Assembly (NCBI GenBank): GCA_965215565.1
Contig: CBDCDZ010000004.1
Coordinates: 3,616,001 to 3,680,000, forward strand
Direction of reading: 5' to 3'
From: Trueperaceae bacterium
Lineage (GTDB): Bacteria > Deinococcota > Deinococci > Deinococcales > Trueperaceae
Length of the DNA: 64,000 nt
Made by a program: the position numbers. Positions 24,001 to 30,000 of the stretch are shown in pieces (within the stretch, counting starts at the first letter, position 1; every line of letters begins with the position of its first letter).

Positions 24001-27000
24001 TGACAGCGCCAGGTGAATATATCTATACGGCTTTTCCCGACAATCAAGTCGGTTACTGGAGTGGCACGTCGTTCTCCGCGCCGATGGTGTCGGGTACGCT
24101 CGCGCTGATGCTAGGTGAGGAAGAGGATGAAAGCCGCATCGCTGACAAGCTAGACAGTGTCGTGAGCGAAGCGAATCTGAGCTATCTGCCTCTACACGTC
24201 AAGGGGTTCGTTGACTGGGCGCTGGACTAACACTTGATTTGGTTTTTGCCGCTCCGCTTAGCCTCGTACATCTTATCGTCTGCGAAGCTGAGCATCTTTT
24301 CGTAGTCGAGCACCTTGATGTCGTCGGTGAGCCCGATGCTCGTGGTCACGCTCAAGTTGGGGTGAACGCTCTGCCAAGGATAGTCCACGACGGCTCGCCA
24401 GATTCGTTCGCAGATAAGTTTGGCGTCGCTCGCCGAGGTTTCAGGGAAGTAACCGACGAACTCCTCGCCGCCGTAACGCGCAACCGTGTCGATTTCGCGA
24501 ACGCTATCGCGCAGAAGCCGCGCTACAACTCTCAGTACCTCGTCGCCTACGCGGTGTGAGAACCTGTCGTTGATTTTCTTGAAGTTATCGAGATCGCAAA
24601 TCATCACGCTGAGGTTGAGACCGAAGCGGCGCGTGCGGGCGAACTCCTGAGCGAGTTGGATGTCGAAGTGGCGGCGGTTGTAGAGACCCGTTAGGGCGTC
24701 TTCTCGCGCTTGGCGCTCGAGCTGCTTTAGGAGTTGCGACTTCTGGTGGTTGGCGCGTTGCAGTGACTCTGTTAGGGTTCTAAGTCCCTCGTTTGCCTGC
24801 GCCAACTCGACGTTTCTGAGCCGATAAATTTCAGTTTCTTTTTCGGCTTGCTCAATCTCAAACTGGACGCGCAGACCCTGAAGCCTGAGGTCCGAACTTT
24901 CGTTGAAAACTTTGTCTTTCACTTCAATGTACTGTTGCAGGTGCTCGAACGCTTCACGAAACGCTTCTTTGTACCAGTAAGCTTCAGAGAGCGTCTCATG
25001 AGTTTTATATATGTCGGCCTGGCTGCCTACTCGTTGCGCGTTTGTGAGCGCTTCACGTAGCGTTGTGATAGCTTCATCATAGCGCCTCTCTCGTAGACGT
25101 AGCTGCGCCAGAAAAACCTGGGTTTCTGCTTTATCCTTCAGATCGCCGACTTCTTCTTTAATGACTAAGCTCTGTTCAAAAGACGCTTCAGCCTCGCGAA
25201 ACTGATACAGCTCGAGCTGCGTCAAACCTAGGTGAGTAAGAACGTTGCTCACGCCGAGACGGTCTCCCATATCGTTCATGTGCTCTAGGCTTTTGCTACC
25301 ATAGCTGCGTGCCTGCTCATAACTGCCAAGCTTGAGATAGGTGCGCCCAGTGTGGAACAGGCTAAGAGCCTGTGTGTACCTCTCTTGCATCGCCTCACTA
25401 ATCTTCAGACTTTGCAGAAAGTACTCGAGTGCTTCGCTGTAGCGCCTACGTTCGTAGTAAACTGCGCCTACATTGATGAGCGCCTCAACCTCACCCCTGC
25501 GATTGTCAAGTGCTCTAAAAAAACGCAGACTTCGTAAATGATAATCTAAGGCGTTGGCATAATCACCGATAAACGCATAAATCGTACCTATATTATTGAG
25601 TGTACCTGCCTCGCCTTGCCTATCACCCAGTTCAGCGCAGAGCTTCTGCGCCTCTAAAAAGACTTTGAGCGCCCCCAAGAGGTCGCCCGAGTCGCCGTAG
25701 ATGATGCCTAAGGTATTGAGCGAGCGTTGCAACCCCTCTCTATCCCCAAGCTGCTCAAAAAAGGCTCGAGCCTCCGCCACATTTGCAAGCGCCTCGTCGA
25801 GTTCCGAGAGGCGCATCTGGCAGTAGCCTTTGGTGAGGAGACTGTGGGCGAGACCGTGCGTGTGCCGCAATTCCCTGGCTAGCGCGTGCGCCTCTTCGCT
25901 CAGCCCTAAGGCCCGCCTCGTGTCCACGCGCCGCAACTCCCAAGCGAGTTCACCGAGGAGGTCTAGGCGAGTCGCAGAGCTTTCCTCTGCGACTTGCGCT
26001 AGGCTGATCTCTAGGTTCTTGACGCGCTCGACTTGCTCGGCATTCATGTGGTATTCATTGCCCCTCACTCCACAGTGTATCTCGCTTTGCGCAAGAATGA
26101 AAGCTCGAAAACTCGGGTGCTGCGCAAGGTCCAACATCGGATCAGAAAGAAGAGGTGAGTAGGCTCGTCCGACGTTTAAGGCAAAGCTCCGCTGCCCCCC
26201 TTACTCCCTTACTTAACGTTCTAGCTCGAGATGTTCCTTCCAACAGCCTCAATGGGTCTACACCGGTTTACGATGTACCTGACCGCTTGACAGAGACACA
26301 CATCGTTATCTATACTGAGCTTACCTTAATAAATAAGGTAGTCAATGATGAGACCAAAGAGGGAGAGTAGAAACGAGCTATGACCCAGTTACCCAAGATG
26401 CAGCGCAAGGTCTACGAGCGAATCTGCGAGCACAAGTCGCGAACAGGCACGTGCCCTGAACTCGCCGTTTTCGCGCGTGAGCTTAACATCCACTACGTGT
26501 CGCTCAAGCAGCATCTCGAGGCGCTCCACAAAAAGGGTTATCTGGTCTTCGAAAGCCGGGGTAGAGGGCAGTCGCCGAGGCTCGAGCTGCCTGCCAGAGC
26601 CACGGGCGTGCCCGTCTTAGGTAGCATCCCTGCAGGTCCTTTGAGCGAGGCGTTAGCCGAGCCTGAGGGTTACTTGCCGCTCCACGACGGACAGAGTAAC
26701 TTCGCCCTGCGCGTTTCGGGCGACTCGATGGCTGACCTTATTCAAGACGGTGACGTGGTGGTCTTCAAGAAAGGCGTGCCTATGCGCAGCGGCGAAATCT
26801 GCGCGGTGCGCGTCGGCAACAGCGAGGTTACGCTAAAGTACCTCGACAAGCTCGACCCTAAAACTGTGGCGCTGAGACCTCACAATCCGCGGTACCCGAC
26901 GCTTTCGGTGGACGCGCGAGAGGTGCATATCGAAGGGATTTACTTGGGTCTTGTGCGCGGTGAACTGCTCAGTTCGCTCTATGAGGAGGTGTGAATTGGC

Positions 27001-30000
27001 GTAAAACCGTTTTGAAGAGCGCAGATATCCTCACCGAATGAACGAGCCAACGCAACACTTCACTGAGTGAGATCGTCGGTAATCAGATAATACCCGCTGC
27101 GTATGTAGAGATTCCTCTCAAAAGCGGATTTCCAAAGCTCAAGCCCGCGCCCCATCCGCCAAGAGTTGCGCGAGCCCACGCCTTGTCAATCTAGCTCACA
27201 CCCGTTGTCACGAGTTGTTGTAACGGGACTAAAGGAGAACTAGCTCATGAACTATCCTGCACGTATCTTTAGGGATTTGTCAAGTGTTTGGCAAAGGGAC
27301 GCCGCAAGTGGGCGCGTCGACAGCTTAGCCGCTGAACTCACCGCTTGCGTCGCCGCGCAAGGCGCGCTCTGCTTAGGTGTCATCCGCGCCGAGGCGGTAC
27401 CCAAATATTACGGTCTCGTTTACCTCTTAGACAGCTACGGCATCTTGCTGCGCAAGCGTCATAGAAAAGAGGGGGGCGTGCTCGTCTTCGCTGAGGTCAA
27501 GCAAGAGGTAGCGTCCGAATTTGCAGGCGCGGTGGTCTTCGAGCGCACCTTAGCACCCTCTGAAGCTGCCGTAACGCTCAGCCAGAGCACCGAGAGAGAA
27601 TTCGCGCAGGCCGCGTAGGGAGGGTTGAGATGAATATGAGCACAGACTTGACCTGGGAAACATTGTTAGAAAAACTTGCGCAACCCTTCCCGGCGTCTTC
27701 CATCTACTGGCGGGCGGGCGTCGTGAGCCGTGACAAAAAGCGGGCGCAAGCGCTGCCTTACGCCGAGCCGCGCGTGTACGAAGACCGCCTCAACAGCGTC
27801 TGTCCCGGTCTCTGGAGCGTGTCGTTTCGTCCCTGGGGGGAGTCGCGCATCATCTGTGACCTTTCTATTGGCGAGCTGACGCGCGCGTCAACAGGTGAAG
27901 AAAACGAGGGTTTCGCGCCCGGCACAGCGGCGGAGGCGCAGGCGTTCAAGCGGGCCTGCGTGAAGTTCGGTCTAGGGCGCTACCTCTACGACGTGCCGAT
28001 CATCTGGGTGCCTTACGACGAGAAGGCGCGCAAACTCTCCGAAACGCCGTCGCTACCCGAAAAGTTTTTGCCCCGGAGCAAACAGAGCGCGCCGCACACC
28101 CTCTCCGAAGGACGCGCCGTCGCCATGCGCCGCGAACTGGAGAAGCTAGGGCTGAAGGAGCGCGAGCAGTACCGGCTCGCCGCCGACGTGCTCGGTCATG
28201 ATATAGCGGCGTTCACCGCGCTCACCGAAGCCGAGGCGCTAGAGGTCTGGAACGTCGCCAAGCGTGCGCACGTGGCGCGAAACGGTATGTCGGCGCAGCG
28301 AGCGGCGTGACGGGCACCCTTACGGCTGAACCTCACGAGCGCGAATACCTCTACCGGTGCCCCAAGTGCAAACGGCGCGTAACGGTGCTACTCGAGAACG
28401 TCGCCGTGAGTTGTAGCCGCTGCGGTCGGGTGATGAAGTGCGTCGACACTCGAGCTGAGCGGAGACATATAGCTTAGCTACTGACCAGGAAGAAGCGTAT
28501 CAGCTACAAGGCTAATGGGTGGATAGAGGAGAGGCTCGAGCGGCGCACCGTTAAAGCTCGAGCCTCTTTCAACCGACACCCTGTAAAGACGGAGTTAAAC
28601 AACATTAATGGGAAGGACGGCGTGAATACCGGACTTATTCTTATAACCTGCCCGCACTGTGACGGCGAAGGGGGCGAGGAGTACGCGGCGGGTCCAGGCT
28701 ACCGGGCGCATCATTCTGGCGGCTATCTCCCCTTCGAACACACCCATTTGTGCGAGGTGTGCGAGGGCGCGGGCGAAGTAGAGGCGTGCGCCTACTGTTT
28801 GGAACCTTTAGAGGTCTTGCGCGGCGAAGAGGTATGCGGCTGCGCCGCGCTGAGCGTAGCGGCGGACGTGCGGCGAGCTGCGTAGAAGCATTAGGGCGCG
28901 CGCTGCTTGAGCTGGTCTGAGACGTCTTGGGCTAGCTCGCGCCCTAGCTCTGCCGCCTCGCTCGCCTCGCCTGCAATCTCTGCCTGAATGACGAGGTCGC
29001 CCGTCATATCGGTCACTGCGCCGAAGAGGTTTAGATCGCCCTCCGGGGTGACGCTGGCGAGGGCACCTAGCGCGTAGGACGAGGCGCTCTCCAGTGCTCC
29101 GACAAAGCTCCGCTCGGCGCGGACGCGGTCGAAGCTGGGGCGGTGCTGGAGGGTGTAGGCGAGGTCGACTGCAAGGTCATCGTCCTCTTTGACCACCAAA
29201 CCGAGCGAACCCTGCCCGGCGGCTGGCGCGAAGATGGCGGGCTCTAAGAGCGCGTTGATGCGTTCTCTGCGCTCGAGTTGCAGCAGATTTGCGCTCGCCA
29301 TGACGAGCGCGTCTACCTCGCCTGTGGCGAGCAGCGACAACGTCGTGTCGACGTCGCCGGAGACTATCTTGACCTCGATATCTTTACGGTTAGCGAGTAA
29401 AAAGGCGCGGTCACGCGGGGCGTGAACGCCCACCACGCTACCCGCTGCTAGCGACGCTAAATCCCTGCCTACCCGGTTGACTAAGGCGGCGCGGGGCTCG
29501 AGCCTCTTCGTCACGGCGGCGAGCATGAGACCGCCCGGCAGAGTTGGCGGCAGTCCTTCCAAACTTTGCAAGGCGATGTTGATGCGTCCGGCTGAAAGCG
29601 CGTTTAGAAGGTCATTCACGCCGCCCTGTACGGTCTTTTGGATGATGTTGACGTCAGGCCAGCCCTCGCTCAGCTCGGCGAGGACCCCCCGCGCTTGCGG
29701 CAGCGCTAAGATGCCACCCCGGTTGCCCAGAACGATTCTAGGCATGGGGTGTCGAGGTTTTGTAGTGTTGTGACTGGTGAGGCGCTCTGTCAGATACATG
29801 AGTAAACGTATAGCTAAACACACAGCATTTTACAGCAAATGCGCGGCAGGCGCTACAGACCGTCACTTCGCGAGATGTCCCTCAAAGCCTTGTGATAACG
29901 TTTCCGGTTAATTCCTTTAGGAATTAACCCGAGTAAAGAGTTTTCAACCGATGGTAACATCAACGAATAGCCAGTACGAGCCGTTTACAATGGCATGATA

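Follow-up and report, generated by a model that had tools for sequence, protein, structure and literature searches.

A predicted LexA operator upstream of lexA-orf123-ddrA and a proposed small SOS regulon in Trueperaceae

Results

The lexA locus

The window is a 64,000-nucleotide stretch of a Trueperaceae chromosome (GCA_965215565.1, contig CBDCDZ010000004.1). The following features were located in it.

26287..26316, + strand: predicted sigma-70-type promoter of lexA, TTGACA-18 nt-TATACT, 11 of 12 consensus bases
26322..26340, no strand: predicted LexA operator, 19-bp palindrome TACCTTA-N5-TAAGGTA, over the expected transcription start
26380..26994, + strand: lexA, 204 aa, winged-helix DNA-binding domain and S24 self-cleaving domain, helix motif HYVSLKQH
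27247..27618, + strand: orf123, 123-aa protein, immediately upstream of ddrA
27630..28310, + strand: ddrA-like gene of the Rad52/Rad22 family, 226 aa (PF04098, 28 bits; cut-off 20.3)
28307..28477, + strand: 56-aa zinc-ribbon ORF overlapping the ddrA stop, with sub-threshold zinc-ribbon matches only

The palindrome reported by the initial annotation was matched exactly, and the letters at 26322-26340 are TACCTTAATAAATAAGGTA. It starts 5 bp downstream of the promoter, stands ahead of lexA-orf123-ddrA and is separated from the lexA ATG at 26380 by 39 bp. The promoter is the sole match in 26100-29000, while shuffled sequences average 0.6 matches.

The product of lexA carries both domains of a LexA protein (PF01726, 29.9 bits, cut-off 23.7; PF00717, 83.5 bits), and its score of 106.9 bits against TIGR00498 is just below the cut-off of 110.95. 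Alignment to solved LexA placed Ala85-Gly86, Ser116 and Lys153 in register with E. coli LexA. These residues are invariant in all seven aligned proteins, and the retention of the cleavage site and the Ser/Lys dyad claimed earlier was thus found. LexA matches are present in 120 of 127 family genomes. Among 121 LexA proteins the Ala-Gly pattern was found in 120, the Lys pattern in 118 and the strict Ser pattern in 94 (the 27 others were not inspected).

No match of orf123 was obtained in Pfam, NCBIfam or Atlas, nor any family or structure lead. It occurs in 16 of 56 family genomes and in none of 163 other genomes of the order, and where the orf123-ddrA pair lies away from lexA it carries its own box. 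The ddrA-like protein shares 38% identity over 132 aa with the gene divergent from ddrO-irrE at locus L143. No solved relative was found by sequence, and the name DdrA is given by family likeness. The zinc-ribbon ORF is probably the last gene of the lexA unit; similar ORFs follow lexA in a six-locus cluster and stand directly after lexA in genomes G006 and G007.

The position of the box relative to predicted promoters was followed through the family. TTGAC lies at most 45 nt upstream of the box in 101 of 106 lexA genes. The distance is 17-19 nt in 48 of 71 genes, which places the box over the predicted -10, and 35-39 nt in 16 of 71, which places it over the predicted start. In the crp-like gene the box fills the spacer of the predicted promoter TTGACA-17-TAAAAT. 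The predicted operator therefore overlaps the predicted promoter, as in LexA regulons.

Sites across the genome and the family

With a spacer of 5, nine genome sites with no or one mismatch were found, against 0 or 1 for every other spacer from 0 to 10. A matrix trained solely on 60 lexA-upstream sites was run over the whole genome. Eight sites scored 28.1-34.6 bits, and the next ones 22.4, 22.0 and 19.8; no site above 25 bits appeared in three locally shuffled copies of the chromosome. The eight strong intergenic sites first described are thus borne out. They precede lexA, the solo recA, a photolyase-family gene, a 64-aa gene upstream of dnaE, a GemA-like gene, a gene for a 127-aa protein, a Crp-family gene and a glyoxalase gene. 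A site at C4:31494, at a transposase, scored 22.9 on a genome-trained matrix and 13.9 on the lexA-trained one, and was rejected. In G030, several matches with one mismatch fall within reading frames and were put down to chance.

The earlier counts of the exact pattern, 62 of 127 family genomes and 1 for the reversed control, were reproduced. A looser pattern was found in 37 of 56 family genomes; elsewhere in the order it occurred in 2 of 163 genomes, as a lone match with one mismatch in each. These tallies take in the unpublished genome G089.

The regulon of this genome is small, with eight sites. In the scan with the lexA-trained matrix uvrA, uvrB and uvdE had no box, and neither imuY nor dnaE2 was found in this genome, so that its regulon holds no error-prone polymerase. 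Boxed copies of uvrA (G026, G126), uvrB (G101) and imuY (G054) occur in relatives, together with boxed SRAP and PA0069-family radical SAM genes. Many boxed genes of relatives are not repair genes (glyoxalases, TetR, DUF6157, ABM, BrnT). The initial term, a classical SOS regulon, is an overstatement for this genome.

The two recA copies

The recA gene is doubled, with one copy in the cinA operon and one standing alone. The box lies upstream of 27 of 27 solo recA genes versus 0 of 24 cinA-operon copies, which extends the split seen earlier (10 of 10 and 0 of 9). A palindrome of fixed spacer thus stands before both lexA and recA, as in a LexA regulon. Within 20 genomes the cores of the two copies are 94.6-100% identical and their ends are copy-specific, a pattern indicative of gene conversion. 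No recA was found in 24 of 81 assemblies, most of them fragmented, presumably because it is doubled and homogenised. Such a doubled, homogenised recA is unusual in its own right.

Covariation of box and recognition helix

In 106 scored family lexA genes the upstream palindrome varies with the recognition helix: YVSL-type helices go with TACCT, YPTL-type with TYACCCT and YTTL with TACCC. Locus L091 of G006, which has too little upstream DNA, was excluded from the counts. Among lexA genes with a Y/F-V/M-S/T-L helix, 67 of 71 have a canonical site of at least 15 bits within 170 nt (60 of these 67 sites being the matrix training set), and controls reach at most 13.9; G106, G056, G029 and G109 score below 15. 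Of the 142 half-sites of the canonical genes, 135 carry A at -8 and 136 carry T at -5. Upstream of the 31 YPTL/YSTL paralogues the sequence is TYACCCT-N9-AGGGTRA, and a palindrome finder returned ACCCT-N9-AGGGT for all 31. For the four YTTL proteins, all 8 half-sites read TACCC.

The data support a box that tracks the recognition helix rather than overall identity, because three LexAs that are just 44-50% identical (G026p, G027p, G055p) retain both helix and box, whereas YTTL proteins at 52-58% identity have the variant box. In G100, where the sole LexA match is YTTL, there are no canonical and six variant matches, including those at lexA and an ImuB-C-like (DUF6504) gene; of the five variant sites inspected there, three stand before genes not recognisable as repair genes, and the solo recA of this genome was either not assembled or not found. 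In G084 no LexA match and neither form of the box was found. G024 and G025 have both a canonical and a YTTL LexA; there the variant box stands before some orthologous targets, namely the GemA-like gene and uvrA, and the canonical one before recA and lexA. A counter-case is G123 (91% complete, 380 contigs), with 11 canonical matches yet only a YTTL LexA found. Since helix and box are common to kin, the 106 genes amount to some three to four independent changes, on a quick LexA tree with weak support at the relevant forks. This covariation, newly found here, is the best evidence for LexA as the binder.

IrrE and DdrO

The absence of IrrE and DdrO had been read from one table. With a query checked against solved DdrO, DdrO was found in none of the 81 family genomes that are 90% complete or more; the counts for the four other families are 103 of 105 (Deinococcus family), 7 of 7, 8 of 12 and 27 of 60 genomes. 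A checked IrrE query, run with no control from outside the family, gave no orthologue in the 128 family genomes searched; partial M78-domain matches appeared in 14 of them, at no more than 45.9 bits and none beyond position 179 of 240. The RDRM consensus of Deinococcus is TATGYYHTTARCRKA (PMC8533742). It is not enriched in this genome, with 0 exact and 7 one-mismatch matches against 1 and 8 for the control. DdrB was not found in this genome by a search that was positive in D. radiodurans.

Discussion

The palindrome at 26322-26340 is very probably a LexA binding site. The repressor-type position, the covariation of box and helix and the split between the recA copies all support the operator that the initial annotation had considered likely. 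Our whole explanation is that the LexA encoded next to the palindrome uses it as its operator, and that a small SOS regulon replaces the IrrE/DdrO circuit; we give it a probability of roughly 0.88. From the observed sites, positions, catalytic residues, covariation and gene presence and absence, we infer binding, repression, cleavage, induction and a division of labour between the recA copies as follows. A LexA dimer would bind TACCT-N9-AGGTA sites covering the -10, the -35/-10 spacer or the start site. The bound repressor would shut off lexA-orf123-ddrA, the stand-alone recA, the photolyase, the Crp-family regulator, the GemA-like gene, the glyoxalase and the genes of two small proteins. RecA from the unboxed cinA-operon copy would sense single-stranded DNA and trigger LexA self-cleavage at Ala85-Gly86, and the boxed copy would then amplify the response. 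Since the family is without IrrE/DdrO, this circuit may stand in for the radiation/desiccation regulon of Deinococcus.

A different binder would be a WYL-domain activator of the SiwR kind, a sensor of single-stranded DNA that switches on glyoxalase, dinB-like and repair genes. According to PMC10693628, SiwR likewise recognises an imperfect palindrome of 19 bp, located between -35 and -10, by dinB and glyoxalase-like genes. In this genome one site is flanked by a WYL gene and a glyoxalase gene, and among relatives glyoxalase or DinB-like genes are often preceded by the box. The initial annotation had cautioned that WYL regulators stand beside some sites. However, 7 of 57 genomes gave no PF13280 match, and LexA is present in six of these (G018, G052, G056, G062, G090, G093); the box is present at lexA in G052, G062, G090 and G093 and at recA in G062 and G093, so that a WYL regulator does not accompany the motif everywhere. 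A WYL binder is also at odds with a box that varies with the LexA helix and that lies, at lexA, over the -10 or start of a near-consensus promoter. Moreover, in G000, G022 and G025 a palindrome distinct from the box, TGACA-N6-TGTCA, stands 6-7 bp away from it at the WYL-glyoxalase locus. A WYL-type GAC-N-GTC palindrome is near only 3 of 23 loci tested (glyoxalase/DinB and others), and dual WYL/LexA control would thus be local rather than general. A WYL binder is very unlikely on these data. Still less credible, to the point of being nearly negligible, is binding by one of the two other S24 repressors (phage CI-like) of this genome. The gene of one of these PF00717 proteins lies 760 bp away from the box upstream of the 64-aa gene (C4:1144734), but both have Cro/CI-type domains, neither has a box in its own upstream 300 nt (scores below -8), and the box tracks the LexA family.

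On the other hand, LexA may bind the box without a RecA-triggered damage response, or with most of the response carried by another regulator. The LexAs of D. radiodurans (LexA1/2) are a precedent, being cleaved yet exerting no control over recA (PMC8072749), as would be LexAs with other roles. The eight sites omit uvrA, uvrB and uvdE, and WYL-domain proteins are encoded in 50 of 57 family genomes. Against this stand the boxed recA, ddrA and photolyase genes, to which relatives add uvrA, uvrB, imuY, SRAP and the PA0069-family radical SAM gene, and the intact cleavage site and catalytic pair of LexA. We consider this unlikely. LexA thus appears to run the DNA-damage response in Trueperaceae without the special regulators of Deinococcus, as had been proposed.

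A joint historical reading is tentative, with chances slightly short of even. Trueperaceae would have lost IrrE/DdrO, and the response would have passed to a LexA of the cassette lineage, whose control is confined to mobile mutagenesis cassettes in the rest of the order, wired to an ancient second recA. Gene conversion would keep the core of this recA identical to the housekeeping copy, so that one protein is made from a constitutive and an inducible promoter with two different C-terminal tails. A later LexA paralogue would be mid take-over: in G024 and G025 its TACCC box would already have captured part of the regulon, and in G100 no other LexA was found.

In textbooks, Deinococcota exemplify a damage response in which recA is not under LexA control. 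The whole family seems to be the opposite case. Its cultured type species showed 60% survival at 5 kGy (PMC3072082), and a family that seems to be run by LexA, with a radiation-resistant type species, makes the need of IrrE/DdrO for extreme radiation resistance testable. The three helix-box pairs amount to a natural, if small, recognition code for LexA. Genomes that have two LexAs may represent the intermediate stage in a model, proposed in PMC8565304, by which SOS motifs change through duplication and takeover.

Comparison with known systems

In Deinococcus, as here, a repressor destroyed by proteolysis would control recA and ddrA through a promoter palindrome, and ddrA is linked to the gene of the master repressor (ddrO-irrE in L143, lexA here). 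In contrast, the cinA-recA operon is an RDRM target there and unboxed here.

The likeness to canonical LexA/RecA SOS, as with E. coli LexA, covers the winged-helix and S24 repressor with its Ala-Gly site and Ser/Lys pair, the predicted autoregulation, the fixed-spacer palindrome on the lexA and recA promoters, and a motif that diverges after lexA duplication. The differences are the small regulon and a box at just one of the two nearly identical recA genes. The literature searched yielded no report of this motif. A Magnetococcus motif is CCT-N10-AGG. SOS boxes are phylum-specific, and among the SOS motifs in the part of PMC8565304 available, which counts 17, TACCT-N9-AGGTA was not seen.

LexA-imuY mutagenesis cassettes are similar in that imuY follows 29 of 31 YPTL-type paralogues and 10 of 14 LexAs from outside the family, with predicted local LexA control of the mutasome. 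However, the LexAs of the Deinococcus family are distant from the one here (at most 65 bits), the core LexA here is predicted to control recA itself, and this genome has no cassette.

The nearest relatives outside the family are S24/LexA genes of Thermus plasmids (pVV8 of T. thermophilus HB8, pTB1 of T. brockianus), with about 42% identity; beyond the order Deinococcales the searches covered plasmids and a close-relative scan. In five genomes the strict Thermus-type pattern was found only at lexA and its cassette, and three other weak matches lie in no recognised repair promoter. The SOS regulon had been called peculiar to Trueperaceae; this stands for the 19-bp box and its global role within the order searched, but not for the LexA lineage, members of which, with a 20-bp box, are found on cassettes and plasmids in Thermus and further genera of the Thermus family. 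The outer half-site upstream of the Thermus plasmid genes, ACCT/AGGT, is identical to that of Trueperaceae, and the Thermus box is one base wider.

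Results

The 19-bp palindrome TACCTTA-N5-TAAGGTA is predicted to be the LexA operator (probability about 0.88). The proposal is well supported, since the box varies with the LexA helix class across 106 lexA genes of the family Trueperaceae. The features around the lexA copy in the window, which encodes a LexA of 204 aa, are:

24227-26137, gene for a TPR-GGDEF protein, transcribed divergently to lexA and 185 bp away from the box
ending 5 bp ahead of the palindrome, predicted promoter TTGACA-18-TATACT
26322-26340, palindrome TACCTTAATAAATAAGGTA, 39 bp before lexA
27247-27618, orf123, encoding a 123-aa unknown protein
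27630-28310, Rad52-family ddrA-like gene
28622-28885, Cys-rich ORF of 87 aa

lexA is followed by orf123, ddrA and a 56-aa zinc-ribbon ORF in this order. The TPR-GGDEF neighbour is not conserved among the relatives seen and is therefore probably no target of the box. The products of orf123, ddrA and the 87-aa ORF all end in Ala-Ala, which may be a ClpXP-type C-terminal tag. Such a tag would suit their clearance after the damage response.

In the whole genome (G000), nine half-site pairs with at most one mismatch have a spacer of 5, against at most one pair at each other spacer length in the range 0–10. Scanning with a matrix built from 60 sites upstream of lexA genes gave eight sites at 28.1–34.6 bits, the next one scoring 22.4. 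No site exceeded 25 bits in three shuffles with the same lexA-trained matrix. All eight sites are intergenic, in agreement with the initial annotation. Downstream of them lie lexA, the solo (stand-alone) recA, the 64-aa gene ahead of dnaE, a photolyase-family gene, and a GemA-like, a 127-aa unknown, a Crp-family and a glyoxalase gene. The annotation's count of the exact pattern, 62 of 127 family genomes against 1 for the reversed control, was also reproduced. A looser pattern was found in 37/56 family genomes vs 2/163 other genomes of the order Deinococcales. The tallies include the unpublished genome G089, on which none of the claims depends by itself.

The boxed 64-aa hydrophobic gene lies directly 5' of dnaE (contig C4:1144763-1150192, locus L009), an arrangement also seen at L205 and L206, and its product could be an SOS cell-division inhibitor. 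This dnaE contains an intein with a LAGLIDADG domain. Two CI-like S24 repressors are encoded at C4:1143248-1144698 and C4:3357550-3358300 (L003, L002, L009), one of them divergent from a Cro-like gene near tRNA gene-like sequence. No phage genes were recognised near the two.

A LexA match is present in 120 of 127 family genomes, and a second copy is common. From 190 matches, 121 loci (107 of the family; one without upstream DNA) were chosen across genera and paralogues. With a Y/F-V/M-S/T-L recognition helix, 67 of 71 lexA genes are preceded by a canonical site scoring 15 bits or more, a count biased upward because 60 of these sites served to train the matrix; control windows reach 13.9 at most. 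TYACCCT-N9-AGGGTRA lies upstream in 31/31 cases with a YPTL or YSTL helix, and TACCC-N9-GGGTA in 4/4 with YTTL. In alignment with E. coli LexA, the class-changing residues fall at the beginning of helix 3, which contacts bases. Three paralogues at only 44–50% identity keep both helix and box, whereas YTTL proteins at 52–58% identity keep neither the canonical helix nor the box. The predicted operator follows the helix rather than overall LexA distance, and the 106 genes reduce to three or four independent changes. Some lexA promoters carry extra half-sites 13–14 nt past the main box (L058, L059, L085-L087, L092, L327), suggesting cooperative binding.

Genomes with different LexA types were compared. 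In G100, the sole LexA match is of YTTL type; canonical sites are absent and the variant pattern matches six times. Of the five variant sites inspected, two lie closely ahead of lexA and a DUF6504 (ImuB-C-like) gene, and no recognisable repair gene lies downstream of the other three. In G084 (180 contigs, 9% contamination), no LexA match, canonical box or variant box was found. G024 and G025 carry both LexA types. The canonical box is retained there at recA, lexA and the 127-aa gene, and the variant box occurs at the GemA-like gene and uvrA, and in G025 additionally at an AAA_24 gene and one glyoxalase. These variant-boxed genes bear the canonical box in G026, G121, G123 or G126. A counter-case is G123 (380 contigs), with 11 canonical matches, yet a YTTL-type LexA as the only one found.

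TTGAC occurs at most 45 nt ahead of the box in 101/106 lexA genes. Relative to predicted promoters, the canonical-class box covers the -10 in 48/71 and the start in 16/71. It fills the spacer of TTGACA-17-TAAAAT at the Crp-family gene. At recA, the photolyase and the 64-aa gene, the end of the box runs into a TAnnnT -10. Such placement would be a repressor position. lexA begins 0–5 nt past the box in many genera (L027-L044, L065-L104), which suggests a leaderless or nearly leaderless mRNA. In several genera (L185, L197, L219, L223) a single intergenic region serves both lexA and the Crp-family gene, which are transcribed divergently.

A WYL-domain activator of the SiwR kind was considered as the binding protein, the initial annotation having pointed to WYL regulators beside some boxed genes. 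SiwR binds within the -35/-10 spacer, at a 19-bp palindrome adjoining dinB-like genes (PMC10693628). However, a WYL match is missing in 7/57 family genomes, six of which have LexA. Moreover, where a WYL regulator precedes glyoxalase (C4:1261306-1262436, L012; also L298 and L381), a separate palindrome, TGACA-N6-TGTCA, stands 6–7 bp from the LexA box (G000, G022, G025). Binding of the box by a WYL activator is therefore very improbable, and LexA is preferred; dual control of the glyoxalase locus is possible.

Two recA copies lie at:

C4:3841067-3842125 and C4:292015-293034, of which one has the box and the other belongs to the cinA operon

Among 51 recA loci read, the box was found at 27/27 solo copies (26 within 260 nt upstream at 17.2–31.9 bits, G101 at -292) and at 0/24 operon copies in about 2.5 kb upstream (best 7.3 bits), which extends the earlier claim to a larger set. 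Nine solo loci were first found via the motif; the 18 chosen by position were boxed in 18/18. In 20 genomes the two cores are 94.6–100% identical (19 at ≥98.0%), while the best match in another genome reaches 73–95%; in the tree, the two copies of a genome group together. The identical tract begins inside the gene in 19/20 and stops 7–115 nt ahead of the stop codon. The tails are copy-specific across genera, mostly acidic ...EE or ...GEA in operon copies and ...LF... or ...LEA in solo copies. The gene upstream of solo recA is common to 10 genomes. An old duplication homogenised by gene conversion fits best with these pairs, which are known from assemblies.

Relatives' sites were taken from listings for 11 genomes with further ones added, and most loci were inspected. 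Recurrent targets are recA, Crp-family, photolyase, GemA-like, 127-aa, 64-aa and AAA_24 genes and glyoxalases. uvrA, uvrB, imuY, SRAP and a PA0069-family radical SAM gene are boxed in some, and several boxed genes are non-repair genes. Away from lexA, orf123-ddrA bears its own box (G010, G026, G054). Split-off dnaE2 genes apart from the lexA cassette have their own YPTL-type box (L331, L339, L350). In G000, uvrA, uvrB and uvdE have no box, and imuY and dnaE2 were not found; therefore, its regulon is minimal.

Discussion

The absence of IrrE/DdrO, previously read from one table, was borne out. Queries from other families of the order, verified against solved structures, gave DdrO in 0/81 family genomes at least 90% complete and in 103/105, 7/7, 8/12 and 27/60 genomes of the other families, with at most 16 candidates scored per genome, positives included. 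For IrrE, the matches were limited to partial metalloprotease-domain hits in 14/128 genomes. The DdrO motif was not enriched in G000. The available part of a review places close IrrE/DdrO homologues in Meiothermus, Marinithermus and Oceanithermus, not Thermus, and leaves Truepera unmentioned (PMC8072749); that of PMC6300522 has nothing on Truepera. Loss in Trueperaceae is the simplest reading, the tree being unrooted. In another family (L143:1634-3761), a ddrA-like gene is divergent from neighbouring ddrO and irrE, an arrangement that parallels the pairing of lexA and ddrA in the window.

No paper on the motif, LexA control in Trueperaceae or homogenised recA pairs was found in the freely searchable literature, and an earlier prediction is possible. 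The closest outside LexAs (40–45% identity) occur in 15/56 Thermus-family genomes and on Thermus plasmids; those of the Deinococcus family are distant. The former share the outer half-site, but their box is 20 bp. By a strict pattern in five genomes it occurs only at lexA and its cassette, and imuY follows lexA in 10/14 outside loci. The LexA/RecA SOS system as such is known. What is new is its box, apparently unreported, with which, judging from sequence, the circuit apparently replaces IrrE/DdrO in one family.
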